From positions 9,148 to 73,147 of the forward strand of contig JAMPXW010000003.1 of the NCBI GenBank assembly GCA_023701005.1: 64,000 nucleotides of DNA, written 5' to 3'. Positions 19,490 to 35,832 of this stretch are shown piece after piece (within the stretch, counting starts at the first letter, position 1; each line of letters begins with the position of its first letter). A program made the translations under genes and the position numbers. The notes beneath the pieces are model-generated. The model made no database searches. It was not told the DNA's origin and worked only from the letters and a program-made list of their open reading frames with translations. The stretch comes from Burkholderiales bacterium. Its GTDB lineage: Bacteria > Patescibacteriota > Minisyncoccia > Phycocordibacterales > UBA9973.

Positions 19490-20170
19490 TTACATTAATC
19501 TTCTACCCTTACGACTAATTGTAATTTCTGTTATTTCTACCTGTTTCGGCAATCTTAATAAATAAAAAACTATACCAGCTACATCTTTTGTATCCATCCA
19601 CTCTGTTGGATCTTCTATTTTCTTTCCATAATCTTTTTCATGCATTTGTGTGTTCATACCACCACAGTGGACATATATCATTCTACTTTTTGTTTTTGAT
19701 AACTCTAATCCAAGATTGTAAGAACCACCCCTTAATCCATATTTAGTTGAAGTGTATGCTAGTTGGTCAACAAATCCAGCTTTCAAATCTGCTGTCGTTC
19801 CTATATTTAATATATCAGCCTCATTTTTTACAATGTTATCAAACAGAGAAGACAAAAAATATAATGGTGCAATAGTATTAATTTTAAATGCTTTCTCAAA
19901 TTTAGAGTATGAGATTTCATTTATCTTTTCCATAGCTACGATAGCGGCACAATTTATAATTGCATCAAAATCATTATATTTTTCTTTTATTGCTTTAACA
20001 GTATTATCAATGTCTTCTTGCTTAGATAAATCACAAGCTATATTAATGACACCTGATACATTACTAGGCGTTCTACTTACATTAATTACTTCTATTTTTT
20101 CATCAATACACAAGCCAGCAATCGATTTGCCAAGTCCGTCACTAGCTCCTAAAATAATCACTTTTTTCAT
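19490..20170 (-). CDS. short-chain dehydrogenase/reductase (SDR)
   Basis: ILGASDGLGKSIA glycine-rich NAD(P) motif, YTSTK catalytic YxxxK. Confidence 0.8.
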   Translation of the reverse strand: MKKVIILGASDGLGKSIAGLCIDEKIEVINVSRTPSNVSGVINIACDLSKQEDIDNTVKAIKEKYNDFDAIINCAAIVAMEKINEISYSKFEKAFKINTIAPLYFLSSLFDNIVKNEADILNIGTTADLKAGFVDQLAYTSTKYGLRGGSYNLGLELSKTKSRMIYVHCGGMNTQMHEKDYGKKIEDPTEWMDTKDVAGIVFYLLRLPKQVEITEITISRKGRRLM

Positions 20171-20186
20171 ATAATAAAATTATATC

Positions 20187-20276
20187 ATAGGTTCAAACTT
20201 GATTTGTAGTAAGAAAAAATACCTTTATTTTGTAAGGTTATTTTCGATGCTCCGAACTTGGGAGGATGTTTGAATT
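20187..20276 (+). repeat. structured ~100-nt repeat unit, copy 1 (taggttcaaacttg / acctt..aaggt hairpin / gattttcgatgctccgaacttgggagg)
   Basis: shares three-part architecture and ~75% identity with copies at 20899-21000 and 21871-21963. Confidence 0.5.
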
Positions 20277-20283
20277 AATATTA

Positions 20284-20898
20284 TTAAGAGATAAATTTAT
20301 CAGGATACTCACCTAATAATTCTAATGCGTTCAAATATCTACTTTCAAAAGTTTTCTTAACTTCAGGTAAAACTATTTTTCTTTCCCAATCTACTTTTAT
20401 TTTCTTTCTTATTTCTTCTCTAACCCATTCAATCCCCTCTTTGGGCTCATCACTAAAAAACCCTGGATAAAATTGACCGACAAAATGAGATGCTCCATCA
20501 GCTGTACTAACTATCTGTACTTCAATAACTTCTTGAGATATATCTATCTCATTTTTCATTTCCATTTTTTCCCAATATCTAAAAACTTTATCTATAAAAT
20601 CCTCTGCCAGACCAACACGCCTTAATGCTTCTATTCCTTTTTCTTTTGTTAATTTTCTTTCATTTTTTATATCTATTGGCTTTCCAAAATCATGGAACCA
20701 TACTAATGCGGTAACAACTTCTCTATCAGCTTCTTTGTATATATCACAAAGTTCCATTGCTATTCTTTCAACTATCAAAAGGTGGTCAGACACAAACCAT
20801 TCTCTGTATTCAAAATCTTTATTCTTGCAATTTTCTTTTACTATTTCTTTAAATTTGTTTAATTTATCTTCCATAATTTTATTATACACTAAAACCAT
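20284..20898 (-). CDS. HD-domain phosphohydrolase
   Basis: H...HD...D pattern: SDHLLIVERIAMEL ... ALVWFHDFGKP. Confidence 0.65.
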   Translation of the reverse strand: MVLVYNKIMEDKLNKFKEIVKENCKNKDFEYREWFVSDHLLIVERIAMELCDIYKEADREVVTALVWFHDFGKPIDIKNERKLTKEKGIEALRRVGLAEDFIDKVFRYWEKMEMKNEIDISQEVIEVQIVSTADGASHFVGQFYPGFFSDEPKEGIEWVREEIRKKIKVDWERKIVLPEVKKTFESRYLNALELLGEYPDKFIS

Positions 20899-21000
20899 TT
20901 AGGTCCGAACTTGGTGATATTTCCTAAGAAGGTAACAAAAAATCACCTTGTAAATAAAGGTGATTTTGCTGGCTCCGAACGTGGGAAGAAGTTCGGAAAG
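20899..21000 (+). repeat. structured repeat unit, copy 2
   Basis: ttaggtccgaacttgg...cctaag; caccttgtaaataaaggtg hairpin; gattttgctggctccgaacgtgggaagaagttcgg. Confidence 0.5.
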
Positions 21001-21492
21001 CTATTCTAGGGTGTAATTAAAAATTTTAATTGGTATTCCCTTCTTCTCTGCTTTGTTTATAGTATCTTGTGTTCCTTCACTTTTATTTACGTGAAAAGCG
21101 ACTAGTTCATCGGCATTTTCAATAATCTTTGTTATGCGGTTATAATAAGTTTCCTTATTTAATACATCTTCGTTTCCTTCTATCAAAGAACCTCTTTTTT
21201 TAACTTCTTTCAATTGCGACAAAAGAGCATCAGCTTGGTCTTTAGTTATTACGCCTTCTTGTGCTCTTTTGGAATAATGGTTTTCGTATGTTTCTAAAGT
21301 GGAAGGAATAATTATTTTCAATTTTCCATCTAATTCTAAAGTTCTTTCTGTGGCTATGTAGTCTACCCCCAAAGCTCCACCTGAAACAATCCCGTTTCCT
21401 GCTGAAATTATTTCATCAACGGTCTTTAATATGTCTTCTTTTATTTGAGAATTGGTTTTTCTCCAAGATCCTGCTACTGCAATCCATTTCAT
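21001..21492 (-). CDS. standalone DprA/SMF-like Rossmann (SLOG) domain protein
   Basis: IVSGGALGVDYIATERTL and YYNRITKIIENADELVAFHV..SEGTQDTINKAEKKGIPIKIF resemble DprA core (GxARGID / RNRII..VVEA..SGsLiTA). Confidence 0.5.
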   Translation of the reverse strand: MKWIAVAGSWRKTNSQIKEDILKTVDEIISAGNGIVSGGALGVDYIATERTLELDGKLKIIIPSTLETYENHYSKRAQEGVITKDQADALLSQLKEVKKRGSLIEGNEDVLNKETYYNRITKIIENADELVAFHVNKSEGTQDTINKAEKKGIPIKIFNYTLE

Positions 21493-21558
21493 AACTTAAT
21501 TATATGATATAATTTTAAATATGGAAGGAAACAAGCAAAATAATATAACTTTCATAGA

Positions 21559-21768
21559 ATGAAGAACTTAATTGAAAATAACACTTTTAATAAAATAGTT
21601 TTGGTTTCTGGTGATGGGGATTATAAAAAATTAGTATACTACCTAGTTGAAAAAAATAAATTTTGCAAAATATTGTTTCCTAATAAAAAATTTGCTTCAT
21701 CTTTATATGATTCACTTGGGTCAGAATACTTTGATAATTTAGAGAACTTAAAAACATACATAGCTTAA
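21559..21768 (+). pseudogene. NYN/LabA-like domain C-terminal fragment (likely remnant of a longer gene)
   Basis: IVLVSGDGDYKKLV...KFCKILFP matches the distal SGDGDF...G..V motif of NYN/LabA domains; N-terminal catalytic half is absent. Confidence 0.4.
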
Positions 21769-21870
21769 AAAAGAAAAGGGCTCCTAAGGCACTAACACCT
21801 TTCGGATCCCTTTTCATATTGATACCCATATTGTATTACAGTTGTCAGACAAAAGTCAAGTGTTTGTTTA

Positions 21871-21963
21871 CTTAGGTTCGAATGTCCTAAGTTCCTCTGA
21901 AAATTACCCTTATATTGCAAGGCTTAGATTTTGCTCGGGATGCTGAACAATGTTCGAACATTC
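21871..21963 (+). repeat. structured repeat unit, copy 3
   Basis: cttaggttcgaatgtcctaag; ccttatattgcaagg; gattttgctcgggatgctgaacaatgttcgaaca. Confidence 0.5.
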
Positions 21964-22259
21964 TTATATTCAAAATATAACAAAAATTATTTGCATGATC
22001 AATAAACAAAATGATATAATGTTACACGTTACCAAGCTGATCTGCATACGCGTCAGCCCATGGTAGATAGGATGCGATTTGCTACCCTTTCTCCATTGGT
22101 CATATGACCTAATTTATTGGTCAATGAAAGGTGCCAAGCATTTGCTGGCATTTCCCGGTCGATCTATATAATAAGGGGAAACCAGATTGTGAGGTGCGTA
22201 TGAGCGCACTTTTTTGTTGCGTTAACAATTATTAGTAATAGTTAATTAACAAAATTATC

Positions 22260-23441
22260 ATGAATAATACAATTAAAATTAGAAAGGTTTCCTCGTTTAG
22301 AAAGGTTTTTAGTTCTCCTCAAGGAAAAAGCAAGAATATCTACATAGCTATTCTTAATATAAAAGATTTACCGAAAGAGCTTGATGGTTGGTTGGCAATA
22401 AACCCAAGAGAGTCTACCCCTGTTTCTGGTGTAGCAAAAAAAATACAAGCTTCATTAATCGAACAACCTGAAGCTTTTATATTCAAAAACAGAGGATTAA
22501 CGGTAATGACAAAAAAAGTTAATTTTGAAACTCAGACAAATATAATTTCTCTAGAAATGTCTGATCCAAAAATACATGGATTACTTGATGGTGGACATAC
22601 TTACAAAGTAATACAAAATGAACTAAGCAACACAATTGATGGGAGAAAAGATTTAGAAAACGCTTATGTTCGAGTTGAGTTTCTTGAAGGTTTTGATGAC
22701 TTAAATGAAGTTGTTGATATAGTAGACGCAAGAAATAGATCGGCCCAAGTAAAAGAACAAAGCTTAGAGGAATTAAGAAGTCACTTTGAGTCAATAAAAA
22801 GTGTTTTGAAAGACCGACCATATGCGGACCGAGTTGCATATAAAGAAATTGAATTATTAGAAGATGGATCTAAAAAAGATATTGATGTAAAAGAAATCTT
22901 ATCCTATCTAGTATGTTTCGACAATGAAGCATTCACTGACAACAAGCACCCAATAGTTGCCTATTCTGGAAAAGCTACTGCACTAAAACACTACATAGAA
23001 AACAGAGATAGAATGTCTAAATATACGATATTGCTACCTAAGATACTTGAACTAGTAGATAAAATTAAACAAGATATACCTAAATCTTATAATGCTCAAG
23101 GTGGCAGATGGGGCGGTTTACAAGGAGTTATAACTGAAAAAGAAAGTAAAAGAAAAACTGAGCTACCTTTTATAGGCGGTGAGTCAGAATACCAAACGCC
23201 ATCAGGTTTTATCTACCCAATCCTTGCTTCGTTTAGATCTGTGGTTCGAATTGAACGAAATAAGGTATCCTGGAAAATCGATCCTGTGGAATTATTTGAA
23301 AAAGTAAAACCCATGCTAGCCGAAGCAATTGGTGAACAAGCAATTGAATTTAGAAATCCAAACAAACTCGGTAAAGACGGAGCAACTTGGAGATTATGCT
23401 ACGCTCTTGTGGCACTCGAAGTAGCGAAGTTGGGTTATTAA
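22260..23441 (+). CDS. defense-associated ParB-fold protein, DGQHR/DndB-like (positional analogue of Abi genes beside Type I R-M)
   Basis: INPRESTPVSGVAKKI then LLDGGHTYK (DGQHR-like motif) ~residue 110; own terminator at 23455-23488; the family assignment is tentative. Confidence 0.35.
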   Translation: MNNTIKIRKVSSFRKVFSSPQGKSKNIYIAILNIKDLPKELDGWLAINPRESTPVSGVAKKIQASLIEQPEAFIFKNRGLTVMTKKVNFETQTNIISLEMSDPKIHGLLDGGHTYKVIQNELSNTIDGRKDLENAYVRVEFLEGFDDLNEVVDIVDARNRSAQVKEQSLEELRSHFESIKSVLKDRPYADRVAYKEIELLEDGSKKDIDVKEILSYLVCFDNEAFTDNKHPIVAYSGKATALKHYIENRDRMSKYTILLPKILELVDKIKQDIPKSYNAQGGRWGGLQGVITEKESKRKTELPFIGGESEYQTPSGFIYPILASFRSVVRIERNKVSWKIDPVELFEKVKPMLAEAIGEQAIEFRNPNKLGKDGATWRLCYALVALEVAKLGY

Positions 23442-23454
23442 AAAAAATATTTTT

Positions 23455-23488
23455 CAGCACCTAGATAAAATAGGTGCTGTTTTTTTTA
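23455..23488 (+). terminator. rho-independent terminator after 22260-23441
   Basis: cagcaccta-gataaaa-taggtgctg followed by T8. Confidence 0.65.
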
Positions 23489-23540
23489 AAAAAAACAAAG
23501 TATGAAAATCTTATAAAAAATGCTAAAATGAAAAGTATCT

Positions 23541-25853
23541 ATGTCTAAAGATCAAGATAATCCAAATCGTGTAATTACAGAACAAGATGCTCGCATCGTA
23601 ATAAACAGAAAACTCCAAGAAGCTGGATGGTCTTTAGAAGGTCCGGAAAAAAATGTATTGACCGAGCAACACTCAGATGCAGGATTTATGGACTATCTCC
23701 TCTTAGATCGAAATGGTAGAAACCTAGCCCTAGTTGAAGCAAAAAAGGATTCCATAGATCCATACACTGCAAAGAACCAAGCGCGAGGATACGCAGAAGC
23801 AAATAACTGCAGATATGTATTCCTAGCGAACTCTGAACAATTATATTTCTGGGACTTAGAAGATGGTGATGCTACTCCCATCGAAAGGTTTATATCTCCA
23901 CAAGACTTACAACGCAGACATGATCTCAAGCTGTCACGCAAACCATTATCTTCAATTCCTCACAATATGGAGATCTGTGACAGACCATATCAAGTTAGCG
24001 CGTCAGACACCATTGCAAAACAATTCGACGAAGGTAAAAGATCTTTCCTTCTTGAGATGGCCACAGGTACAGGCAAAACAAGATTGTCTGCAGGGATAAT
24101 AGACCGCTTCTTAAAAGCACATCAAGCTGAAAGAGTTTTGTTTATTGTGGACCGAATAGAACTAGCTAAACAAACACTAGATGCCTTTCAAATAGCATTC
24201 AAAGACAACTATAGAGCTGTACGTTATAAACCCGGCCAGCATGCAGTATTCGGTGGTGCAAATATCGTAGTAGCGACAATACAAAGCTTAAACATCCACT
24301 TCAAAAAAGACTTCACCCCGGGTTATTTTGACTTAGTTATCAACGATGAAGCACATCGATCCATATACGGCGAATTACCACGCCAAGTTGTTGAATACTT
24401 CCAAGCGGTGCGTATAGGACTAACTGCTACTCCAAACGACTTTTTGAAAAATATAGACATAGAAAAACTACAAGATAGTAATCCCCTTAAACTTGAATAC
24501 AGGTTTGCTCGTGATACATACAAACACTTCGGCTGTGATATGAGTACGCCAACATTTAGATACACCATCCAAGATGGAGTAAAGGATGGCTTCCTCGTTG
24601 CTCCACGTATTGCTCGTATGGTATCAGTAATCACCAAAGAAGCTGTTTCAGAAGATGGATGGAATATAGAAATAGATGGCGAAGACTATACCTATCGTAT
24701 TTCTCAGTTAGAAAAAAAGGTTCTCATCCCAAAAAGAAACGAATTGATTTGTTTTCAATTTTTACAAAATGCATTAAAAACACCAGATGGAGCTATTGGT
24801 AAATCTGTATTCTTTGCAGTATCACAAAACCACGCCGTGGCTCTCGCTCGAGAATTAAACAGACTAACTCCTGAACACAATGGTAAATTCGCGGAGGTTA
24901 TAACTTCTCGTGTGCAAGGAGCTTCTGACCTGGCTAAGCAATTCAGAAAAGATGAAAACTTCTATCCTCGTATAGCGGTGAGTGTGGACATGCTAACTAC
25001 GGGTTTTGATTGTCCTGAAATTCTAAACATAGTACTCGCTCGTCCGATTGCTTCACCAACCACATACATTCAGATCAAAGGACGTGGTACTAGAAAGTAT
25101 ACCTTCCCAGACGGCACACCCAAAAAAGAATTCTTGGTGCATGACTTCTGTGAAGTGGTGAAGTATTTTGAAGAAGAATATGACTTCGAAGCACCGTTAC
25201 CTGTGACTGGTACTGGTGGCGGTGGCACAACACCACCCCCACCTCCTCCACCACCTGAAGAAGTAAAAACCTACGAAGGCACTGATGAAATAGTACTAAC
25301 AGAAATGATTCAAGTCGGTCCTGAGGGTGAAAAAGTAGACCGTCTTGTTTATATAACAAAATGGGAAAAGACTATCAGACAAATTATCAACGAAAACCCA
25401 ATCCTAGCTAAACAAGTAGAAGAAGGTTCTGAAGAAGAAATATCAGAATTCTTGCGTACAAATGTCTTCGACAAACCGACAGAATACTTCAACGAGAGAA
25501 ACCTTTCCCGTGCATATAGAGTGTTTGGGGATTTGATTGATTTTGTGAAAGCAGGTCTTGGTATGCAAAAACTTCCGACCCGAGAAGAGCAATTACTCGA
25601 ATTGGTAGAAAGCATCAGAACTGATCACGACCTAAACCTAGAACAAGTAAGGTTGTTAAAGATACTTGTAAGGCAATTGAGCCAAAGCCCTAAGCTCTTG
25701 GCCAAGTTTGAGGCCGGAGATTACTCTTTCCTCGACGAATCGCCTTTCTCTCAGTTTGGTGGTACAAGAATGTATATAGCTGGCTTTGATTCGAAAATTA
25801 GAGTAGTGTTTGATACCGTACGCTCAAGTCCGGCGTTAACAATAGTTGAATAA
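23541..25853 (+). CDS. hsdR: Type I restriction enzyme R subunit (short form, with poly-Pro linker)
   Basis: HSDR_N nuclease-like N-terminus (DYLLLDRNG..LVEAKK), helicase motifs EMATGTGKT, DEAH, LTATP, QIKGRGTR; GGGGTTPPPPPPPP linker at ~25200-25260; noticeably higher GC than surroundings. Confidence 0.85.
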   Translation: MSKDQDNPNRVITEQDARIVINRKLQEAGWSLEGPEKNVLTEQHSDAGFMDYLLLDRNGRNLALVEAKKDSIDPYTAKNQARGYAEANNCRYVFLANSEQLYFWDLEDGDATPIERFISPQDLQRRHDLKLSRKPLSSIPHNMEICDRPYQVSASDTIAKQFDEGKRSFLLEMATGTGKTRLSAGIIDRFLKAHQAERVLFIVDRIELAKQTLDAFQIAFKDNYRAVRYKPGQHAVFGGANIVVATIQSLNIHFKKDFTPGYFDLVINDEAHRSIYGELPRQVVEYFQAVRIGLTATPNDFLKNIDIEKLQDSNPLKLEYRFARDTYKHFGCDMSTPTFRYTIQDGVKDGFLVAPRIARMVSVITKEAVSEDGWNIEIDGEDYTYRISQLEKKVLIPKRNELICFQFLQNALKTPDGAIGKSVFFAVSQNHAVALARELNRLTPEHNGKFAEVITSRVQGASDLAKQFRKDENFYPRIAVSVDMLTTGFDCPEILNIVLARPIASPTTYIQIKGRGTRKYTFPDGTPKKEFLVHDFCEVVKYFEEEYDFEAPLPVTGTGGGGTTPPPPPPPPEEVKTYEGTDEIVLTEMIQVGPEGEKVDRLVYITKWEKTIRQIINENPILAKQVEEGSEEEISEFLRTNVFDKPTEYFNERNLSRAYRVFGDLIDFVKAGLGMQKLPTREEQLLELVESIRTDHDLNLEQVRLLKILVRQLSQSPKLLAKFEAGDYSFLDESPFSQFGGTRMYIAGFDSKIRVVFDTVRSSPALTIVE

Positions 25854-25856
25854 AAA

Positions 25857-27335
25857 ATGAAATTACAATTTACAAATTCAGACATAAAACAAAAAGTAGA
25901 TCGCATCATGTATGAGCTGTTTGCTGGTGGAGTAAACAACCCAATGACAGCCATCGAACAGATCAGCTATTTGATGTTTCTAAAATCCTTAACTGAATTT
26001 GATGAGCAACAAGAAAGAATTTCTAATCTATCTGGTAAAAAATACGAGAGTGTATTCAATGGAAAAATCAGCAAGTTCAGTTGGCGTGTAATTAGTCGAC
26101 TTTCTGGTGATGAGCTATATAACACACTAGCAGAAGTATTCGAACATTTACACGAACTTCCAAAACTTACAGCCACAGGAAAAACCCTATTCCGCCAAGC
26201 TCACTTAAAGATATACAATCGCCCTACCCTAAAATCAGTAGTGAGTATTATAGATGGAATGGACTACAACAATGCTGAAAAATACGACACAGATGTCAAA
26301 GGAGATATGTATGAATATCTCTTAAACAGAATAGCTGTGGCCGGTACAAACGGACAATTCAGGACTCCACGTCACATCATCAAGGCTATGGTTGAATTAA
26401 GTAAACCAAAACCATCAGATCTAATACTGGACCCGGCTTGTGGTACTGCTGGATTTTTGATTGAAGCATACAAACACATACTCAAAGAAAATACTTCAAA
26501 AGAAGAATTAGCTGAAGGAAATGAAAATGGTGACGAACTATCACCTGCACAACATGAATTCCTAAAAACAAAAGCTATCAATGGTTTTGACAACGATGCA
26601 GACATGATTAAAGTAGCGGTAATGAATTTATACCTTCATGATTTAGCTCAATCAAATGTAATAAACTTCGATCCACTAACTCTTCCAGAAGAAAAGAAAA
26701 AGAAATACGATTTGATACTCGCAAACCCTCCTTTCGCTGGTAATATAAACCCTGAAGCAATCCAAGAAGACATTGGATTAAGTACTACAAAAACAGAATT
26801 ACTATTCTTGAAATACATGTATGACCATCTAGCTGATGGTGGTAGATGCGCAGTGATTGTGCCTGAAGGAATCTTATTCGGGTCTACAGGCGCTCACAAA
26901 AAAATGCGTGAACTAATGATGGACACATGCAAAATAGATGCAGTAATCAGTCTTCCCTCTGGAGTATTCAAACCATATGCGGGAGTAAAAACTGCGATAA
27001 TCTTGTACACGAAAGGTGGTAAAACTGACAAGGTCTGGTTTTATGAAGTAGTTGGTGATGGATTTACTCTTGATGATAAAAGAAACCCAGACCCAAAGAA
27101 TGACAACCTAAAGGATTTATTCAAGGCTTTCGAAAAGAAAGAAGCTGGCCCGTATAGTTGGATAGTAAAAAGAGATGAAATAGTAGCTGAAGAATACAAC
27201 CTCACAGCATCACGATACAAACCTGCAAGCACTGAAGTCATAAACCACCGAGACCCTAAAGAGATCATTACAGAGGTAATGAAACTTGAAAAAGAAATAG
27301 TCGAGGGTCTTGAAAATCTAAAGAAAAAGATATGA
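25857..27335 (+). CDS. hsdM: Type I R-M N6-adenine DNA methyltransferase subunit
   Basis: HsdM N-domain, AdoMet motif DPACGTAGF, catalytic NPPF. Confidence 0.9.
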   Translation: MKLQFTNSDIKQKVDRIMYELFAGGVNNPMTAIEQISYLMFLKSLTEFDEQQERISNLSGKKYESVFNGKISKFSWRVISRLSGDELYNTLAEVFEHLHELPKLTATGKTLFRQAHLKIYNRPTLKSVVSIIDGMDYNNAEKYDTDVKGDMYEYLLNRIAVAGTNGQFRTPRHIIKAMVELSKPKPSDLILDPACGTAGFLIEAYKHILKENTSKEELAEGNENGDELSPAQHEFLKTKAINGFDNDADMIKVAVMNLYLHDLAQSNVINFDPLTLPEEKKKKYDLILANPPFAGNINPEAIQEDIGLSTTKTELLFLKYMYDHLADGGRCAVIVPEGILFGSTGAHKKMRELMMDTCKIDAVISLPSGVFKPYAGVKTAIILYTKGGKTDKVWFYEVVGDGFTLDDKRNPDPKNDNLKDLFKAFEKKEAGPYSWIVKRDEIVAEEYNLTASRYKPASTEVINHRDPKEIITEVMKLEKEIVEGLENLKKKI

Positions 27336-28423
27336 CATGGGAAACGATACAATTCGACAAAATAATTACTTCATATGGTGTTGGTAAAAATGGTCTATCT
27401 AAAAAAGATTGGAGTGAAGATGACAAATATCCAGTAATAGGACAAGGCGCTGATTTCATAGAAGGTTGGACAAACAGAGAAGATTTGGTAATTAATCCTG
27501 ATTCTGAGGGTTTAGTTATTTATGGTGGACACACACGAAGAGCAAAATATATAACTACACCTTTTGTGCCCGGTCCTAATGTGAAAATACTAAAAACACC
27601 TCCTGAGATAAAACCTAGATTTTTATTCTACTTTCTTAATTCTGCAGAAATACCAAATAAAGGGTATGCGGATCACTTTCCTCTTGTAAAAAGAATTAAA
27701 GTACCTATACCTTCCATAAAAGAGCAAGAAAGAATTGTAGCTCTTCTTGAGCAAGCTGAGGAATTAAAAAACAAAAGAGCTGAGGCAGATCAAAAAATGG
27801 AAGAACTAGTCCCTGCATTATTTAATGATATGTTCGGGAATTTGTCACAATGGCCAAAAATCAAACTCAGAGATATAGCAATTGTTAAAATAGGCCCCTT
27901 TGGGACACAATTACATAAACATGATTACATAGAAAATGGCACCCCCATTGTTAACCCTACTCATATAGTTGAAGGTAAAATAATTGTAAATCAATCATTT
28001 ACTATCAGTGAAGAAAAGACCAAAGAAATTAATCAGTATATTATGCATACCGGAGATATCGTGCTAGCAAGAAGGGGTGAAATGGGAAGATCTGCGATAG
28101 TCTCTGAAAAAGAAGATGGCTACTTGTGCGGTACAGGTAGTTTGTTTATAACTCCAACTAACCAAATTAATCCATATTTTCTAAACACAATTTTTTCTTC
28201 AATTCAAATGAAAAAAACATTAGAGGAAAATGCTCGTGGCGTGACAATGAAAAACTTAAATATCAATATCGTTGAAAATATATGTATTTCAAACCCACCC
28301 ATAGAATTACAAAACCAATACGAGAGAACTATTAAAGAACTTATGTTCTTAAAACATAAACAAGAAGAATCGGTCAATAAATTAAAAGAACTATTTACGG
28401 CTATTCTAACAAAAAGCATATGA
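27332..28423 (+). CDS. hsdS: Type I R-M specificity subunit (two target-recognition domains)
   Basis: two TRD halves separated by conserved coiled region (EQERIVALLEQAEELK); start overlaps hsdM stop (ATGA). Confidence 0.85.
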   Translation: MTWETIQFDKIITSYGVGKNGLSKKDWSEDDKYPVIGQGADFIEGWTNREDLVINPDSEGLVIYGGHTRRAKYITTPFVPGPNVKILKTPPEIKPRFLFYFLNSAEIPNKGYADHFPLVKRIKVPIPSIKEQERIVALLEQAEELKNKRAEADQKMEELVPALFNDMFGNLSQWPKIKLRDIAIVKIGPFGTQLHKHDYIENGTPIVNPTHIVEGKIIVNQSFTISEEKTKEINQYIMHTGDIVLARRGEMGRSAIVSEKEDGYLCGTGSLFITPTNQINPYFLNTIFSSIQMKKTLEENARGVTMKNLNINIVENICISNPPIELQNQYERTIKELMFLKHKQEESVNKLKELFTAILTKSI

Positions 28424-30102
28424 CAAGACAGAAACCTATAAAAGAAATAATGCCGTGGAGCAAAGATGAGCTAGAAAAACTATTACTCAAAGTAATAGAC
28501 CTTGGTGTAGAGACAGCTAAAATTGATTTCAAGCTCGAAATTGAAACAAACACTCCTGAGCAAAAATCAGAACTATTAAAAGATATTTGTGCAATTTCAA
28601 ATACTTATGACCTAAATTATGATGATTATGGTTTTCTTATATATGGAGTAAAATCAAAATCTATTATTGGTATCTCTACAACGGAAGAAAATACTGACAA
28701 TTTTCAAAATCACATAGAGCAATTACTCAAAAACAACATCACTCCTACTCCACAAATACAGATTGTTTCTTTTGAAACCGAAGACAATAAAAAATGGGGT
28801 GTAATTGTTATACCACCAGACAACAATAAACCTCACATGTTCTTTAAGGATTTCTCTTGTCCAACAAATCCAAGCAAAAACAGAAAAAAGGGCGAATGGT
28901 TTGTAAGACATGGTTCTACTACCGACCCTGCTTCAGCAGAAGATCTCTCAATCATTAACCAAAAACAAATTGAAATAACCTTAGAGCCACTAAAAGAGAG
29001 TATTAAGAATTTACAAGCTCGTGTTCTAAAAACTGAAGAGCAGTACAACAGCGCCCTATTTAAGCTAATAGAAACTGCACTAAAAAATACTACTCAAAAT
29101 AGAAATGCGCCTGAAGTAGAAAAAACTGAAATTGCATCTGATATTGAAGAAGTAGTTTCAGTTGATTTGGCAAGTCGATTCAAAAGTAAATTACTTACAC
29201 CTAAAGATAAGTTATCCGAAGAACTTATCTCGGAGGCAATTAAAATAAGAGAATACATAGATGGAGCAAATACAGGGCTAACTTGGATACCTCAATTAAA
29301 TAATTCGGAAGACAATAAAAAGATCGTAGAAAACTTAGAAGAAAAGATAAAACCATTTATTGATTCTGTGGCCATGATCGTATTAAAGGACGAAAAAAAT
29401 ATCTATAAAGAATCACTAATAAAAGCTATAAAAATTCTTTGCAAATCAATAGATGCCCCAAGTGGCACTCAGTATAATAGAATAGGACAAGGTATTAGAT
29501 ACTATCCATTATACCTACTCTTATATGTGATTTTTATTTGCGGGGTGGTTTCAAATAAAGGATCGTTACTAAAAGATATACTGAATCTTCAAATAAAACA
29601 TCCACGAACTAAAAATACCTCACCTATTACAGATGTTTATTTCTTCGCCTATGAAGGAAAAGCTTTAGTAAACGATGCTTATAAACAAAGGTGGTGTGAG
29701 CCAATTGCGCAAAGAATACGACAATTTATAAGTGACAATATCGGTGAACATATTACAGAAATGTCTGAGGCGGAGTATTTTTTCAAAGGAGAATTTGTTC
29801 TATCACTAAGTAATATCAATAAGGCGATGAGTGATGGCGAACAAGTAGAACACAGAATTCCACTAGGTGGACTTTATCTACATTTATATGAATGCAACGA
29901 ACCAATAACCGATTTAATAACAGAATTACCCGATTGGCTAGATAAATTATATGATCATCCACTAAACGAAATTCTAGACATGTTTGATAAAAATGCAACA
30001 AAAATGTCTGGCCAGGGTTGTTTTGCAACAGGTACTCATGGTCTTAAAACCAGAGAATTATATGACCTCGCGTTAAGCTCTAGAGCTAAAAAGACTCGAT
30101 AA
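28420..30102 (+). CDS. AlbA_2/Schlafen-like (COG2865-type N-domain) protein with coiled-coil middle and uncharacterised 230-aa C-terminal domain
   Basis: N-term ETAKIDFK...ICAISNTYD..GFLIYGV...WFVRHGSTTDPASAEDL matches AlbA_2 signature (E..LEFK / AlANt.GG / yvRvGsst..A..ee); ATGA overlap with hsdS stop. Confidence 0.6.
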   Translation: MTRQKPIKEIMPWSKDELEKLLLKVIDLGVETAKIDFKLEIETNTPEQKSELLKDICAISNTYDLNYDDYGFLIYGVKSKSIIGISTTEENTDNFQNHIEQLLKNNITPTPQIQIVSFETEDNKKWGVIVIPPDNNKPHMFFKDFSCPTNPSKNRKKGEWFVRHGSTTDPASAEDLSIINQKQIEITLEPLKESIKNLQARVLKTEEQYNSALFKLIETALKNTTQNRNAPEVEKTEIASDIEEVVSVDLASRFKSKLLTPKDKLSEELISEAIKIREYIDGANTGLTWIPQLNNSEDNKKIVENLEEKIKPFIDSVAMIVLKDEKNIYKESLIKAIKILCKSIDAPSGTQYNRIGQGIRYYPLYLLLYVIFICGVVSNKGSLLKDILNLQIKHPRTKNTSPITDVYFFAYEGKALVNDAYKQRWCEPIAQRIRQFISDNIGEHITEMSEAEYFFKGEFVLSLSNINKAMSDGEQVEHRIPLGGLYLHLYECNEPITDLITELPDWLDKLYDHPLNEILDMFDKNATKMSGQGCFATGTHGLKTRELYDLALSSRAKKTR

Positions 30103-30342
30103 AAACCAAGGAAAATGGTAAAATGAATTTACCATAATTTATGGTGACAAAACCTAAACCAGAGCAATCTGGCATGGTTCAAATATCCCACGCGAATAGA
30201 AACGGCCACATAAGCCGACATTCATTCGCGTGGGTCCACAATCGAAAGGTTGTGGGATAGTTCCGAAAGGAGCTGTCGTCGTGTCTTGTGTGGCCATTTG
30301 TGTTAAACAAGCCGACTATTATCAACTAAAACCCACGCGAAA
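30103..30342 (+). other. GC-rich highly structured leader/ncRNA candidate with mutually exclusive pairings
   Basis: cccacgcgaa at 30187 and again at 30329 just before the ATG, complementary ttcgcgtggg at ~30231; hairpins atggtaaa/tttaccat/atggt, ccaga-gcaa-tctgg, cccacaa-tcgaaagg-ttgtggg. Confidence 0.45.
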
Positions 30343-31212
30343 ATGAAAACTAAATATAACAAAGGATTTATTCCTATCATAGCGATAGTGATACTTGGAA
30401 TGCTTGTTGTCGCCGGAGGCACAACGGCTTTGATAAGTAGTAAAAAAGAAAATGTAAATAAAATTGCACCCGAAGATAAGAGTGTCCTAAAAAACGAAGA
30501 GGTGTCTTCAAACAAAAACACAGAAGTAAAGACAGAAAAAACGAATATCTCTGAGACAGAAAAACAAGTAAAAATTGAAACAAAAACTCCTCTGGTAGAT
30601 ACAGAAGAAAATGTAAAAACAAAACTAGTAGATACAACAAAAGAACAACCGGCAGAGATACCACAGGAAGTAAAAACTGGACATCTAGGAATAAAATTGA
30701 TCAATGAATTTTTACAAATTCCTACCTTAGACAACCTGAAAGCATTCTGTACTAAAGCAAAAAACGTAGATGGTATATCAGAAAAGAAAGTAATGAATCA
30801 GGACAAAACTGCATATGTGATACAAAAAAATTCTCTCTATGATGAAGTAAAAATATGCAAAACAGCTCTAAATGAATACCAAGGAAGCGAATGGTATAAA
30901 TGGACTTCTTATAAAGAAGATTACTTAATCAAACTAGTAGACCCTAGTGAACCAGACAGCATTAGATCTAAAAAATTGGATTACAACGAAAAGATGTTGT
31001 TAATGAAAGAATATAATTTATTTGCATATGATCCCTCTTCTGCAAGATTTGAAGATGTATCCAACTATTTGAAACCAAACGTGGTGATGGAAAAGATAAT
31101 AGAAATTGATCAAAGCAAAAGAAATAGTATAACATCGAGGATGTATCTAAATTCATTTTTAATACCCGAGAAAGAAATGGTCAAACTCAAAGAAAGACTA
31201 ATAAAACAATAG
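30343..31212 (+). CDS. hypothetical secreted/membrane-anchored protein (N-terminal TM, Lys/Glu-rich linker)
   Basis: signal-anchor FIPIIAIVILGMLVVAGG then low-complexity region. Confidence 0.5.
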   Translation: MKTKYNKGFIPIIAIVILGMLVVAGGTTALISSKKENVNKIAPEDKSVLKNEEVSSNKNTEVKTEKTNISETEKQVKIETKTPLVDTEENVKTKLVDTTKEQPAEIPQEVKTGHLGIKLINEFLQIPTLDNLKAFCTKAKNVDGISEKKVMNQDKTAYVIQKNSLYDEVKICKTALNEYQGSEWYKWTSYKEDYLIKLVDPSEPDSIRSKKLDYNEKMLLMKEYNLFAYDPSSARFEDVSNYLKPNVVMEKIIEIDQSKRNSITSRMYLNSFLIPEKEMVKLKERLIKQ

Positions 31213-31261
31213 ACGCAATTGAAAAAACAAAGAATTCAAAAAATGTCTCAAAATAAACCCT

Positions 31262-31801
31262 TTATAAATAAGGTTGCAAGTCTCTGCAATTTGACCTATC
31301 CAAAAGATTACTAGGGAGACGTGTAGTTATCCAATCAGAATTAGAAAGTAGTAATAACTTCCAAACCCAAGCAGATTCAAAAAACAATCTGGTCCTATCC
31401 TTCCAAGATAATTCAGGGTTAGCATAACAACTAAAACCATCTTCATTTATAAATAAAGTATTATAGGAAGTTATAGCTTTGTATGCTTCTTCCATAAAAC
31501 AAGAAGACAACTTAATCCCTCCACGCTTCTCTAAATCCTTAGCTAAAGCTTCTAAAACAGCATTCAATCGTCCATCCTGTATCCATCTTTTATACCTTCT
31601 ATGACATGTTTGAAAAGACGGAAAACCCTCGCCTTTAGGTAAGCGCCTCCAAGAACCACCTAGCTGAATCACATACAAAATACTATTAAGCACATCTCTA
31701 TCAGAAGTTCTTTTTCTTCCTCTGGTTTCCAAAGAATTACGCTTAATAAGCGGTTCTACTAAAGCCCATTGTTTATCTGTTAACTTAAATGGCAAGATCA
31801 T
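31262..31801 (-). mobile_element. IS5-family (IS427/ISL2 group) transposase remnant, N-terminal DUF4096-type domain only
   Basis: LTDKQWALVEPLI..RGRKRTSDRDVLNSILYVIQLGGSWRRLP...YKRWIQDGRLN matches IS5-family N-terminus; DDE region degenerate/absent, 179 aa. Confidence 0.65.
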
Positions 31802-31838
31802 ATATTAATTATAAAATAAATTGATATAATTAAAATGT

Positions 31839-32525
31839 ATGGAAACTAAAGGCGATAAAAATGTGCTAGCGCACATAGCTGATGTGATATTAAAATCGAA
31901 AGTAAAAGACAATAATCAATACTCTGGAATCAAGTATGAGTCTCTTCCGTTTGCAAAAGAAGAAGCTAGAGAAGGACTCAAGGAATTAGCAAGAAACAAG
32001 TACATAGAAATAGAAAAAGATTATGATACATACTTACACGAAGAACCAATACACGACCCATTCCCTATAAATAACCACCCCTCAAAAACAATCTATACAA
32101 TACCGGCCGGAGCATTAGTAAAAATAAAGAATGAAAAAGAACTAAAAAAACTAGCTTCGACTAAATCATTTATAAATCCAAATATCAAAGATTTGAAAAA
32201 AGATGAGAGTACTGGAGATTTTTATTTGAAAGAAGATAAGTTAGAAATGGGACACGAAACCACACATTACACTCTCTTAGAGTTATTCTACGAAAAAGCT
32301 ACTGATGGAGTTATCACACAAGACTCCGCTCTAGAATTTTTTAATGAAAGAAAAATCAAAGTCGGTGGCAAAAAGATAACAAAAGAAAATATAAATAAAA
32401 CAATAAATAACTATACCGCTTCTCTACTAAGATTCGCAAAAATTAAAGGAAAAAGATTCACAAGCTCACCAATAAAAAAAGTGAAAAAAGGCAAATATGT
32501 AATCGGCTGGAAATTCTCTAAATAA
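31839..32525 (+). CDS. hypothetical protein, 228 aa
   Basis: ORF only. Confidence 0.45.
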   Translation: METKGDKNVLAHIADVILKSKVKDNNQYSGIKYESLPFAKEEAREGLKELARNKYIEIEKDYDTYLHEEPIHDPFPINNHPSKTIYTIPAGALVKIKNEKELKKLASTKSFINPNIKDLKKDESTGDFYLKEDKLEMGHETTHYTLLELFYEKATDGVITQDSALEFFNERKIKVGGKKITKENINKTINNYTASLLRFAKIKGKRFTSSPIKKVKKGKYVIGWKFSK

Positions 32526-32664
32526 TATAATACTTACATTTTACTTATGGATAACCTCAATTGAGGTTATTTTTACATTGCAAACAAAGACTATTTTCTA
32601 AATATAAGTAAAACTAATCAATTCTAAGCTAAAAAAGAAATTCATAGAATAAATATACACAACG

Positions 32665-32727
32665 CCAAGGCGATCAAAGTAGTTGTGTAAGTCCATCCCT
32701 TGATCCAATCGCCTTGGTCAAGGGATG
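32665..32727 (+). promoter_or_regulatory. leader with two mutually exclusive hairpins (attenuator-like)
   Basis: stem A ccaaggcgat/atcgccttgg; stem B catcccttgatc/ggtcaagggatg whose loop contains the 3' arm of A; B abuts start codon region of 32725-32949. Confidence 0.35.
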
Positions 32728-32949
32728 TATTTATTTATGAAGTTCAGCACAGAACAATTAAACAGACTAAGAACAATCATGGAAAAAGATTATGGGGTTC
32801 TTATGAATGACTCTCAGTTAGAAAAATTCGCATCATCTATAGTACGTTTAGCAAATGTATCTCTAAAAGCTTTGACTGAAGAGAACGACACAGAGTCGCT
32901 CCCTTCAGTGAGGGCTAATGTGTCCTCAATAGCAAATACCAGCACTTAA
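32725..32949 (+). CDS. hypothetical small protein (74 aa; alternative start 32737)
   Basis: ORF only. Confidence 0.35.
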   Translation: MYLFMKFSTEQLNRLRTIMEKDYGVLMNDSQLEKFASSIVRLANVSLKALTEENDTESLPSVRANVSSIANTST

Positions 32950-33326
32950 GTGCCTTTTCAAGCCCTGGGCGCACCTATGTGGGGCTTGTAAAAATAAAAT
33001 AGACATAGGATTGGTTTCGTGATCCCGCGATTAAGGGATGAGGGGTGTCACAAGGAAACCAAACCACTGATTGCGGTGTAGCTTAAAAGACCCTAACGCA
33101 ATCAAGTTCACCACCAGTACATTATTATGAGCTGTGTTGGATAGATGGGTCCAAGTAACCTCCGAGATAAAACGGAAAAAGGTACGGCGACCCCCTAAGG
33201 TTCTAAAACCGTGGGGGTTTGGGGGCTATTGGATTCGGGAAAGGTGTCTTTACTAGACTTCTTGAGAAAAATCCAATACCCTTGTGTTTGCATAAATTAT
33301 TAGAAATTAATAACAAAAAAAATAAA
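32950..33326 (+). other. GC-rich structured non-coding region upstream of serine recombinase (ncRNA or recombination-site candidate)
   Basis: hairpins caagccc...gggcttg, tggtttc...gaaacca, gattgcg...cgcaatc, attggatt...aatccaat; competing ccccc/ggggg segments; markedly GC-richer than genome. Confidence 0.4.
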
Positions 33327-35036
33327 ATGGAAAAAGAACAACAAAAATTAAACAAATACTTTATTTATTGCAGAAAGTCTACAGACAGCGAAGATAGACA
33401 AATACAATCATTATCAGATCAAATTAGGATATTACAAGAAATGGCAGAAAAGAAAGGTTTAATGATAGTAGAAACCTTACAAGAAGCTAAATCTGCTAAA
33501 GCACCCGGTAGGCCAGTATTCACGAAAATGATTGAGAGAATTAGTAAAGGTGAAGCCAATGGAATAATCACATGGAAATTAAATCGATTAGCGCGTAATC
33601 CTATAGATGGTGGAACTATCAGCTGGCTACTCCAACAAGGAGTGATTAAAGAAATCCTCACCCCGGAAAAAAGCCACTATCCAAATGATAATGCATTAAT
33701 CATGTCAGTAGAATTAGGTATCGCAAATCAATTCATTAGAGACTTAAGTAGTGATGCTAAGCGTGGTATAAAAACAAGAGCAACACAAAAAGGTTACCCA
33801 AATGGAGTTGCTCCTATAGGATACTTAAATGATCTTGTGAAAGCCAAAGGAGATCGTGGCTGGAAAGTAGACGAAGAAAGATTTCCAATAATAAAACAAA
33901 TACTAAAAATGTTTGCCACGGGTAAATACTCAGTGAGACAAATGACTAGTATTGCTAACGAAGAAATGGGATTGAGAACCTTTATAAGGAAAAAACAAGG
34001 TGGAAAGAAAATCGTTGTATCTTACATGGATGTGATATTAAAAAATCCAGTATATGCCGGCTTCTTCTTTCTCAATACAGATAATAGTAGGCATGAAGTA
34101 AACAAAGAAATTCCAAGAATGATCTCTGAAGAAACATATTGGAAAATACAAAAAATTCTTGGAAACAGAGGACGCCCTAGGCCTCACAAAAATATAAAAG
34201 CTTTCGCTTATACAGGTCTCACCAAATGCGGTGGCTGTGGTGGCTCTGTGACGGCTGAAGAAAAATACCAATTAATATGTTCCAGTTGTAAGCATAAATT
34301 CGCCTATGCAAGTAAAAACGAATGCCCCAAATGCAAAACAAAGATAAAAGACATGGAAGATCCTACTTACTTACACTATACCTACTATCACTGCACAAAA
34401 AAGAAAAGAGAACTAAAATGCAAAGAAAGATCAGTGGTGGATACAAAAATCGATGAGACGCTGGCAGACTACTATAAAAAAAACTTAAAAATATCAGCCG
34501 ACTTGTCTAAGTGGTGCATAGAAAATCTACGAGTAATTGAGAAAGAAGAAAAGCAAAATGATTACGAGATAAAAGCGTCTTTACAGAAAACCCTGACATC
34601 AAAAGAAAAAGAGCTTTCAGAACTAGCACTGATGCGCGCCAGAGGGCTTTTGGACGATGAAAGCTTCATTACAGCACAAAATACAATAAAGGAAGATATT
34701 AGCGCCCTTAAGCGAAAATTGAGCGAATTTGAGCATCTTGATCCAGAAAAAGCAGAAAGGATTTACCAAGCATTCGACCTATCGCAAGGCATAGACGAAA
34801 TTATCAGAAATGGCACGCCTGAAGAGAAAAAATCAGTATTATTGGAAATTGGTTCGAACCTAACTCTAAAAGACAAAACAATCAATGTTTATAACAGCGA
34901 ATTGTATTCTGCAATAATAAATGGACTACATTTAGCAAAGTCTGAAATTGAGTGGTTCGAACCTGAAAATTATCAAGCAGAACAAGAACAAAACGCCTCT
35001 TTCGAGGCGCTTCGTTCAACCATGCTCCGGGGGTAG
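33327..35036 (+). CDS. large serine recombinase (integrase type: resolvase catalytic domain + recombinase domain + zinc ribbon + coiled coil)
   Basis: YCRKSTDSEDRQ..SLSDQ catalytic Ser region, LNRLAR, CGGCGGS...CSSCKH...CPKCKT zinc ribbon; start set at MEKEQQ (ORF track start 33219 overlaps a conserved hairpin); stop overlaps tRNA-Asn 3' end. Confidence 0.8.
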   Translation: MEKEQQKLNKYFIYCRKSTDSEDRQIQSLSDQIRILQEMAEKKGLMIVETLQEAKSAKAPGRPVFTKMIERISKGEANGIITWKLNRLARNPIDGGTISWLLQQGVIKEILTPEKSHYPNDNALIMSVELGIANQFIRDLSSDAKRGIKTRATQKGYPNGVAPIGYLNDLVKAKGDRGWKVDEERFPIIKQILKMFATGKYSVRQMTSIANEEMGLRTFIRKKQGGKKIVVSYMDVILKNPVYAGFFFLNTDNSRHEVNKEIPRMISEETYWKIQKILGNRGRPRPHKNIKAFAYTGLTKCGGCGGSVTAEEKYQLICSSCKHKFAYASKNECPKCKTKIKDMEDPTYLHYTYYHCTKKKRELKCKERSVVDTKIDETLADYYKKNLKISADLSKWCIENLRVIEKEEKQNDYEIKASLQKTLTSKEKELSELALMRARGLLDDESFITAQNTIKEDISALKRKLSEFEHLDPEKAERIYQAFDLSQGIDEIIRNGTPEEKKSVLLEIGSNLTLKDKTINVYNSELYSAIINGLHLAKSEIEWFEPENYQAEQEQNASFEALRSTMLRG

Positions 35037-35062
35037 GGATCGAACCTACGACCAATCGCTTA

Positions 35063-35631
35063 CACTTTATCTCCTATTACTAGAAGTGTGGACTATATCA
35101 TCTCCATGTTCATAAAATTTATGAATTTAGAAGCAAGGCGCTTCGCGCTCTAACATAAATTAGAGAGCTACTCCATAAATGGATAGTCTCTACACCTTCC
35201 TCAATTTAAAATTGAGGCTTGGCTCGGGATTACCCCATAAGGGCTTCCCCGAATTCACCTTGTTTTTCAACCTAAGTTTTCTTAGGAAGCTGCGTAATAC
35301 CGTCATGTATTTCCATATGACAATTTGCACACAAGAGAACACATTTATCAATTTCTTTTTTGATACGTTCCCATGACCTAGTTAACCCCCTAGAAGAAAG
35401 ATCAAAATCTTTTTCTTTTGGATTTAAGTGATGAAAACTTAATGATCTCTGGCATTTATTATAGCCACACACAATACACTTACCGCCTTTATAGTCTCTA
35501 GCCATTTCACGAAGCTTTTTTCTTCTTCTTGTAACAGCCATTACCATATATTCTCTACGGTCGGCATATGTTCGTTTTTCTACTCGTTTCTTTTTGGTAT
35601 ACACAAGTAGATTATACCACAAACATCCGAC
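35063..35631 (-). mobile_element. group I intron within tRNA anticodon loop
   Basis: 5' exon ends in U, intron ends in G; P7 pairing agacta...tagtc and P8-like hairpin tccatttatgga downstream of ORF. Confidence 0.65.
35272..35622 (-). CDS. HNH homing endonuclease encoded in the tRNA intron
   Basis: CIVCGYNKCQRSLSFHHLNPKEKD...LLCANCHMEIH HNH motif; non-ATG (TTG) start in track. Confidence 0.7.
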   Translation of the reverse strand: MWYNLLVYTKKKRVEKRTYADRREYMVMAVTRRRKKLREMARDYKGGKCIVCGYNKCQRSLSFHHLNPKEKDFDLSSRGLTRSWERIKKEIDKCVLLCANCHMEIHDGITQLPKKT

Positions 35632-35832
35632 ACAGGCGACCGCTCTACCGCTGAGCTACCCCGGAATATTTTATTTTCAATTCTTCTTTTAAATACCATA
35701 ATTTCCACCAAACTATCTACCTATAAGTAGATAAGCCCCGGAATATTATTCAATTAAAAGAACTTTTTATATCTTAACAGAAAATAACTAAAAAACAAGA
35801 TGGCTTTTCGTTTTAGTGTATAATTAAATACA

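Follow-up and report, generated by a model that had tools for sequence, protein, structure and literature searches.

Repeats in a Patescibacteria contig as candidate junctions of an integron-like cassette array downstream of tRNA-Asn

What is the role of the three structured repeats that flank a small group of accessory genes in contig JAMPXW010000003.1 of assembly GCA_023701005.1? The stretch analyzed, called the window below, is 64,000 nucleotides (nt) long and covers positions 9,148 to 73,147 of the contig. An earlier note on this DNA described three copies of a three-part repeat and offered three possible roles: a small RNA family, terminators or promoters, and recombination sites. The reading favored here, with a probability of roughly 0.55, takes the repeats as junction modules in a cassette array of integron-like type that is anchored downstream of tRNA-Asn(GUU) and recombined in trans, each module also carrying a terminator and a promoter. 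Its direct support consists of a large family of related repeats, the arrays that they form, the mosaicism of cassettes between genomes, the position of homology breaks at conserved boxes and the linkage of the repeats to tRNA-Asn and to a recombinase gene.

All three copies are present at the gene boundaries originally described, on the plus strand and in direct orientation. Copies 1 and 2 occupy the gaps separating the minus-strand genes SDR, HD and SLOG, and copy 3 comes after the remnant of an NYN gene. The general layout comprises a box A of the form GGTYCRAAY, a short hairpin set between runs of A and T, and a third part. In copies 1 and 2 the third part reads GCTCCGAAC-nTGGGAnGAn-GTTYGRA and is called the core, with boxes B and C flanking a 10-nt loop. 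The units of the window are as follows.

20187-20283, minus on the gene strand: junction unit 1, at the HD/SDR boundary, matched by the core and full-unit profiles; box A GGTTCAAAC at 20190-20198, hairpin ACCTT/AAGGT at 20221-20238, core GCTCCGAAC-TTGGGAGGAT-GTTTGAA at 20249-20274
20899-21000, minus on the gene strand: junction unit 2, at the SLOG/HD boundary, matched by both profiles, fold z=-5.9; box A GGTCCGAAC at 20902-20910, hairpin AAAATCACC/GGTGATTTT at 20939-20967, core GCTCCGAAC-GTGGGAAGAA-GTTCGGA at 20972-20997
21868-21965, minus on the gene strand: junction unit 3, degenerate, matched by the full-unit profile only; box A GGTTCGAAT at 21875-21883, hairpin CCTT/AAGG at 21907-21923, degenerate third part GCTCGGGATGCTGAACAATGTTCGAAC at 21933-21959
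34954-35030, minus: fourth, partial unit; box GGTTCGAACC at 34954-34963, hairpin CGCCTC/GAGGCG at about 34994-35009

On the minus strand, unit 1 runs from core' through the hairpin with its T-run and box A' to TGATATAAT and the ATG of SDR, and the core of unit 2 begins 5 nt past the SLOG stop codon. The length from box A to box C is 85 nt in copy 1 and 96 nt in copy 2, and the two copies are 71% identical over a 62-nt alignment. The pattern of the third part has two matches in the window against 0.10 expected. The core profile detects copies 1 and 2 (E=4e-11 and 3e-9) and misses copy 3, while the full-unit profile detects copies 1, 2 and 3 (E=1e-23, 5e-23 and 1e-5). The next full-unit match in the window (E=0.005) lies on the opposite strand within copy 3, and the best match outside the array (E=0.02) covers the hairpin only. 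Searches of the 64-kb window with box regular expressions and both profiles give no further copies beyond these three and the partial unit on the tRNA side.

Copies 1 and 2 clearly belong to one family. Copy 3 is counted as a degenerate member because the full-unit profile still matches it and its third part has no conserved loop; the conserved core is absent as well, and the third part has GCTCGGGA at its start, which resembles the reverse complement of the tRNA-Asn 3' end, and GTTCGAAC at its end. The description of the repeat changes in two further respects. The ttagg...cctaag hairpin first taken as its opening part is not family-wide, and the conserved element of that part is the GGTTCGAAC box. 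The ccgaac and gttcgg arms said to pair in the third part do exist and are conserved as sequence, without covariation.

The wider family was retrieved by scanning species-representative genomes with the 26-nt pattern GCTCCGAACNTGGGANNNNGTTYGRA of the third part, using 8-kb tiles; all family counts come from the matches listed, and L-numbers such as L015 and L122 label loci from other genomes. The pattern occurs in at least 119 tiles on at least 114 contigs from at least 105 assemblies, where an estimated one match would be expected by chance. Nearly all of the listed assemblies are labeled Patescibacteria, Paceibacteria, Nomurabacteria or Minisyncoccia, with a few short contigs in other bins. 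By the core profile, the listed tiles hold at least 272 copies. Conservation is 93-99% even where the pattern allows any base, it extends about 10 nt beyond the pattern (T..TAT..T), and the 10-nt spacer between boxes B and C is as strongly conserved as the boxes themselves. The motif was not found in the viral collection or in phage records. Rfam 15 has no family that matches it at the gathering threshold, and at E<=10 the region 20100-22300 gives four weak matches, none of which overlaps a repeat copy. Neither the motif nor any integron-like array of this phylum is described in the literature searched.

Some cores carry GC-rich hairpin insertions of 20-90 nt, all at one point of the loop (after TGGGAn and before GATGTTCGAA). 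Such split cores are found at L085:7330-7409, L030:4402-4472, L009:2700-2778, L086:4115-4193 and L022:6142-6270, and one type of insert (agcctgcccgc...) is recurrent in several genomes.

Tiles with several copies show how the family is organized. Among the matches listed, the copies share one orientation in 70 of 70 such tiles, at a spacing of 300-3000 nt (median about 850 nt), and contiguous tiles reach at least 9-10 copies per 12-16 kb. Typically one or two small open reading frames (ORFs; median 155 amino acids) lie between copies. Since 78% of these ORFs are on the strand opposite to the motif as written, the core on the gene strand lies beyond the stop codon, usually 0-100 nt past it. The cargo is diverse, with 91 Pfam families in 150 ORFs (NUDIX, methyltransferases, GNAT, glyoxalase, HAD, kinases and CAAX proteases), and the arrays are flanked by ordinary housekeeping genes (199 Pfam families in the flanking ORFs). 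The arrays thereby show every property asked of a cassette array: few ORFs per unit, co-oriented sites past the 3' end of the ORF, diverse cargo and cassettes shared between arrays. At L115:5010-5118, two complete cores are separated by 64 nt that hold nothing more than a small hairpin, which makes the cassette position "empty". The earlier note called the arrangement cassette-like, and the arrays and mosaicism of other genomes strongly reinforce that description. It would have abandoned its proposal for copies confined to this locus, free of compensatory base changes and unconnected with gene-content variation; the family extends over the assemblies counted above and is tied to gene-content variation, so that outcome did not arise.

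The exchange of single cassettes is best followed from the genes between and around the window copies.

19490-20170, minus: SDR, a short-chain dehydrogenase gene downstream of unit 1
20284-20874, minus: HD-domain cassette gene between units 2 and 1
21001-21492, minus: SLOG gene, forming with NYN a divergent two-gene cassette (21001-21768)
21559-21768, plus: NYN remnant, a gene fragment

Homologues of the window HD gene with 85-88% nucleotide identity occur in four other contexts, among them L122, L124 and L131, and their neighbors are unrelated each time. The homology ends within box C' in the comparison with L122, runs on through a unit with the same rare GTTTGAA box in L124 and begins at box A' in L131. 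The last of these is a 1154-nt contig with both ends inside cores, as expected of assembler breaks at repeats. The SLOG gene recurs in L015 together with a full NYN gene, where the pair adjoins a box A, a hairpin, the X element described below and a tRNA gene; the homology breaks off at 21868, which is the start of copy 3. Relative to the full gene in L015, the window NYN has lost about 290 nt of its 5' part, which identifies it as the remnant of an internal deletion. The divergent promoter TATGATATAATTTTA shared by the two genes is retained beside the remnant (21493-21768). The same 15-mer precedes SDR on the other strand (20175-20189).

An all-against-all comparison of the loci reveals many single-cassette blocks of 300-700 nt that are shared among genomes at 80-93% identity. 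When units of one subtype are compared between genomes, an identity of 87-98% sets in exactly at the first base of AGGTTCGAAC and extends through GTTCGAA(T), and the DNA on both sides is unrelated. Of 47 units, 42 measure 84-87 nt from box A to box C. All homology breaks that can be mapped fall at box A, at box C (GTTCGAA-type) or at the GCTC that opens box B, and the base-level mapping of crossovers by pairwise comparison is limited by a core that is conserved in all copies.

The GCTC breakpoint leads to the tRNA-Asn gene downstream of the array.

35025-35665, minus: tRNA-Asn(GUU) gene with a group I intron in the anticodon loop (Rfam Intron_gpI at 35070-35359)

The reverse complement of the tRNA-Asn(GUU) 3' end is GCTCCG.GGGTAGGGATCGAACC. 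The core and this reverse complement have GCTCCG and T.GGGAT in common and otherwise diverge, so the repeat is not a faithful tRNA copy. The flank consisting of hairpin and box A is common to units and tRNA-Asn genes at 87-91%, and at many loci a tRNA-Asn gene replaces the core and is preceded by the same box A and hairpin. Breaks at GCTC are seen between the tRNA of L062 and window copy 1 (87%), between L026 and L030, and between L073 and L088. By a hand tally, about 32 of 34 tRNA-like sites point in the direction of the array. The fourth, partial unit of the window ends in GCTCCGGGGGTAGGG from 35024, the reverse complement of the tRNA-Asn 3' end, and the same box-hairpin-tRNA layout exists in L102, L020 and L130. 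ARAGORN does not detect the intron-split tRNA-Asn of the window, whose 3' half is identical to intron-less tRNA-Asn genes at other loci.

Several further observations concern this tRNA. Intron-bearing tRNA-Asn genes are also present in L015, L020, L039, L060, L073 and L106. An upstream ORF of 116 amino acids at the window intron (35272-35622) has a CxxC...H pattern and no Pfam match. A second TCCGGGG start at 35720-35745 (minus), similar to the tRNA-Asn 5' end and 77 nt upstream of the real start, may be a rearrangement remnant. The structured X element, about 170-200 nt long, occurs at L015:4101-4290 and L023:3893-4060 and in L062, L066, L076, L079, L089, L106, L111, L113, L117 and L121, always between hairpins that adjoin arrays or tRNA-Asn, and is absent from the window. 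Its 5' part is like the reverse complement of the tRNA-Asn 3' end (GCTCCGGGGGTAGGG), and its 3' part resembles the 3' end of a tRNA in forward direction, interrupted by a hairpin (...CCCTAC-hairpin-CCCCGGAGC) that has clear compensatory changes between loci. The X element was considered as a tRNA, a transfer-messenger RNA or an Rfam family and rejected, with no ARAGORN or Rfam match.

Between the array and the tRNA lies DNA of a different kind.

21966-34953: apparent integrated island from the array to tRNA-Asn, with AIPR, type I restriction-modification, an SLFN/AlbA_2 ATPase, LOOT RNA, an IS5-family fragment and a recombinase
33219-35036, likely start 33324, plus: large serine recombinase gene (Resolvase 4e-18, Recombinase 2e-5)

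Judged by its sequence features, this 13-kb region looks like an integrated island. It has a higher GC content (0.38 at 22-28 kb) and is bounded by copy 3 on the left and the partial unit on the right. The features used to recognize tRNA-targeting elements are all found in it, namely an adjoining tRNA, a tRNA-proximal recombinase and repeats similar to the tRNA 3' end at both bounds. The recombinase ORF is convergent with tRNA-Asn and overlaps it by about 10 nt, and its product shares about 23-25% identity with phage large serine integrases. At its 3' coding end are two GGTTCGAACC boxes (34851-34860 and 34954-34963) in two reading frames. Homologues retain both boxes at their 3' ends, about 100 nt apart (GSN and WFEP frames), at 34-37% protein identity; the retention of boxes in two frames despite this divergence hints at selection on the boxes as DNA.

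Homologues of the recombinase stand beside tRNA-Asn in L102, in L020 (contiguous with L063) and in L130; in L092 and L111 they lie at the tile ends. As far as the available DNA allows, the order is cores, island, recombinase and tRNA, explicitly so in L102, in L020 with L063 and in L130. A metagenome scan with the recombinase returns one relative only. At the level of motifs, no tyrosine-recombinase signature was found in the window ORFs or in 1137 ORFs of the 119 tiles, and by family count Phage_integrase is not in the 25 most frequent of the 199 Pfam families in flanking ORFs. The large serine recombinase is the best candidate enzyme for the unit sites, a link made by its association with the tRNA and the boxes. 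The earlier note did not pick up this gene, 11 kb from the repeats, nor the connection with tRNA-Asn or the fourth unit.

Three other features accompany the island or lie beyond it. A GC-rich segment of about 200 nt at 22018-22215 (plus), upstream of AIPR, has a terminator-like hairpin at its end (22191-22212) and a fold that surpasses shuffled sequences only modestly (z=-2.3); it has no Rfam match and no homologue at the other loci, and could be an island leader or a small RNA. A LOOT RNA (30151-30277, plus, 71 bits) is located at the end of the type I restriction-modification/SLFN block. A compact RNase P RNA of 308 nt, against a 367-nt model, is encoded at 42126-42433 (plus).

The mechanism that would join these observations is best read along the gene strand. 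The module begins with a conserved 26-nt imperfect palindrome, TTCGAAC-ATCnTCCCAn-GTTCGGAGC, whose last bases match the tRNA-Asn 3' end, continues with a terminator-like A-run, hairpin and T-run that also follows tRNA-Asn genes, and ends with a GTTCGAACC box set against the TGnTATAAT -10 element of the next, probably leaderless, gene. The TTCGAA-type boxes would serve as binding and crossover sites for a site-specific recombinase supplied in trans, at which single-gene cassettes and larger islands would enter, leave and replace one another. Co-oriented arrays would grow as such events recur at the tRNA-Asn flank. The best candidate for the enzyme is the large serine recombinase family of the islands between array and tRNA, represented here by the gene at 33219-35036. 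The module may also insulate the cassettes by ending transcription of the upstream gene and starting that of the downstream gene. Recombination, its enzyme, the exact crossover and the activities of terminator and promoter are all deduced here from sequence. Of the three roles initially suggested, that of recombination site is the best supported.

The promoter and terminator features of this mechanism are the common ground with its nearest rival. A TGnTATAAT or TATAAT lies 6-8 nt ahead of the ATG in SDR, HD and SLOG (20160-20175, 20875-20890 and 21493-21510, minus) and adjoins box A'; in SDR the -10 element is TGATATAAT, 8 nt upstream of the ATG. None of the three cassette genes has a Shine-Dalgarno sequence, and together with the short distance to the ATG this suggests that the cassette mRNAs are probably leaderless. 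The hairpin, with its flanking A/T runs, has a stem that covaries across 50 units, and on the minus strand of copy 2 it forms a stem-loop followed by a T-run (AAAATCACC-N11-GGTGATTTT-TTGTT). It looks like an intrinsic terminator by sequence criteria, and a simple terminator scan missed the copy 2 hairpin because it has fewer than three G-C pairs. The same hairpin trails the tRNA-Asn genes. In another class of units, which covers many cores, a TTGACA-17-TATAAT promoter comes immediately after the core. Box C is followed by a -10-like TATAAT, and the T of position 32 is conserved at 97%. All of this would suit a module of pure transcription punctuation, made of terminator, promoter and GTTCGAA operator boxes, that spreads passively with horizontally transferred genes, the breaks at boxes being due to ordinary homologous recombination between conserved repeats. 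The explanation is nevertheless unlikely. Housekeeping genes do not use the module, and its confinement to one cluster in 64 kb means that it is not a general expression signal. The cassette functions form no coherent regulon, a spacer as conserved as the boxes would be unusual in operators, and the two cores of L115 have no gene between them. The single orientation of the multi-copy tiles and the anchoring at tRNA-Asn would also be left unexplained. The terminator and promoter role first suggested is kept as predicted sequence features of the second and first parts of the repeat.

An improbable alternative is a structured RNA, either a minihelix like a tRNA acceptor in the 3' untranslated region of the cassette or a small RNA, read by a protein or RNase for processing, stabilization or regulation. 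The stem of boxes B and C is 93% paired on the gene strand, and the common variant of box C forms a G-U pair on that strand and a C-A mismatch on the other. The CGGAGC end is that of tRNA-Asn, variable hairpins are tolerated in the loop and copy 2 folds far beyond shuffled sequences. Set against this, no pair of the stem has changed on both sides, RNAalifold gives essentially no consensus structure (-1 kcal/mol) and no conserved long stem, and unpaired core bases are conserved as strongly as paired ones. No Rfam match overlaps the copies even at the relaxed threshold, and in many of them a strong terminator stands between the stop codon and the core. The small-RNA role of the earlier note is the weakest of its three on these grounds. 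A near-invariant core without covariation points to recognition by a protein, with room left for an RNA role. A miniature inverted-repeat transposable element (MITE) with GTTCGAA terminal inverted repeats, inserted between genes, would account for a discrete, sharply bounded module of about 85 nt with inverted terminal boxes and unrelated flanks, and for outward-facing -10-like sequences such as those of Correia elements. It is a very unlikely source of these copies, which are clustered and not dispersed, hold a single orientation at 70 of 70 loci, include two-thirds of cores with no box A at the standard distance and have no associated transposase. They also lack a target-site duplication: no offset gives one in more than 3 of the 47 units, and shuffled pairings give 2-5. 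Least probable of all are canonical integron attC sites in a cluster of attC sites lacking integrases (CALIN) or a degraded integron. The R''/R' box test (57-141 nt apart) gives TTCGAAC ... GTTCGAA(CC) on the gene strand, with the inverted AAC...GTT boxes 85-96 nt apart, and the cassettes carry one or two ORFs in co-oriented arrays with integron-like cargo. The second L''/L' pairing, the spacer and the extrahelical bases of attC are not found, nor is a long bulged stem, and sequence rather than structure is conserved across the assemblies. The cassettes each have their own promoter and terminator as sequence features, the arrays are anchored at a tRNA, and the test for a complete integron (intI, attI and Pc) finds none, with no tyrosine-recombinase signature at motif level in the ORFs searched. 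The original decision not to call the locus an integron was right.

Several points weigh against recombination at junction modules, the reading preferred here. No recombination event, circle or empty site has been observed, and ordinary homologous recombination between conserved repeats could also give breaks at the boxes. Box A stands at the standard distance in only about one-third of cores. Among known recombinases a center of 6 to 10 nt would be long or unusual, and one central position varies here. Mismatches in the stem of boxes B and C amount to 6.6% on the gene strand against 17% on the other, which favors single-strand folding, and the splitting of several cores by hairpin insertions in the loop is better suited to an RNA motif than to a DNA site. 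Conservation of the boxes in the recombinase gene could reflect protein constraint. About 8 of the 119 tiles have a serine-recombinase homologue, and most arrays show no recombinase inside or directly adjoining, within tiles that are short at 8 kb.

Other interpretations of the core and its surroundings were tried and rejected. Long-range pairing of boxes A and C is not retained as a selected structure, with C'-A' compensations only in the two window copies. On inspection, the spacings within the core do not fit a sigma-54, extracytoplasmic function (ECF) or standard sigma-70 promoter, and the nearest promoter layout, TTGGGA-15-TATAAT, has the wrong direction for most genes. A mini-ORF in the core (ATG TTC GAA TGA) has no usable ribosome-binding spacing on inspection. 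For a position at the terminus or dif the window skew gives no sign, since it only tracks the gene strand. The metagenome-assembled genome is labeled "Burkholderiales bacterium" at NCBI, whereas the GC content of 33%, the gene content and all relatives are those of Patescibacteria; the contig was probably placed in the wrong bin.

In Patescibacteria, which live on other cells and have very small genomes, the gain and exchange of accessory and defense genes are poorly understood. A broader proposal, put forward only tentatively, is that the arrays represent an undescribed cassette platform of this phylum, in which self-expressed cassettes are joined by modules of about 85 nt derived from the tRNA-Asn flank and are moved by a large serine recombinase acting in trans from hotspot islands. 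If true, the platform would be a main route of gene flux in a very large phylum, with arrays in at least 105 species-representative assemblies, and a second, independently built answer to the problem that integrons solve. With the junction as a simple sequence marker, metagenomes can be searched for the variable gene pool, and the recombinase with its site could serve as a tool.

Among known systems, integron or CALIN arrays, tRNA-targeting islands and composite islands of the staphylococcal cassette chromosome (SCC) type come nearest to this arrangement, which differs from each of them. Two more distant systems share parts of it. Correia, repetitive extragenic palindromic (REP) and MITE-like repeats are also intergenic modules of about 100 nt with inverted ends that are promoter-like and terminator-like, but the units here have no target-site duplication, keep strictly to one orientation and form arrays with one gene between copies. 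Xer modules (Acinetobacter pdif and the integrative mobile elements exploiting Xer, IMEX, at dif) also have small cargo, short imperfect palindromes and no recombinase of their own, and the core can be drawn as an Xer-type 9-6-9 site, TCCGAACnT-GGGAnG-ATGTTCGAA. Here the sites are direct instead of alternating, similarity to dif is not demonstrated, the window skew gives no terminus signal and the motif scan of the window identifies no Xer gene.

Integrons resemble the present arrays in having mostly single, promiscuous accessory genes with a site in one orientation at every boundary, in a site size of the 60-140 nt class with inverted ...AAC/GTT... ends, in the recurrence of a cassette in different arrays and in the existence of arrays without a neighboring integrase. 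They differ in that the junction sequence here is conserved across more than 100 species and has no L-box or extrahelical architecture, a terminator hairpin lies inside it and a promoter abuts it, and the cassettes are predicted to be self-expressed. The anchor is tRNA-Asn in place of attI and intI, and the nearby enzyme is a large serine recombinase, with no tyrosine integrase found. Integrative islands that target tRNA genes leave direct repeats of the tRNA 3' end and can build up in tandem. As in such islands, the elements here lie downstream of a tRNA, the repeats begin like the tRNA 3' end and carry the 3' flank of the tRNA, the recombinase sits at the tRNA-proximal end of the 13-kb island and the newest element is nearest the tRNA. 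Unlike in such islands, most units bound elements of about 0.8 kb that have no integrase, the repeat leaves the tRNA sequence after 4-6 nt to become its own palindrome, and the enzyme is a serine and not a tyrosine recombinase. In staphylococcal SCC and pseudo-SCC elements, the Ccr large serine recombinases act at integration sites downstream of rlmH that form direct repeats of 15-18 bp, and recombinase-less elements are mobilized in trans. The likeness to SCC lies in a large serine recombinase, tandem elements and direct site repeats beside a conserved gene, while the arrays described here are distinguished by single-gene elements, structured modules of 85-100 nt, and another phylum and target.

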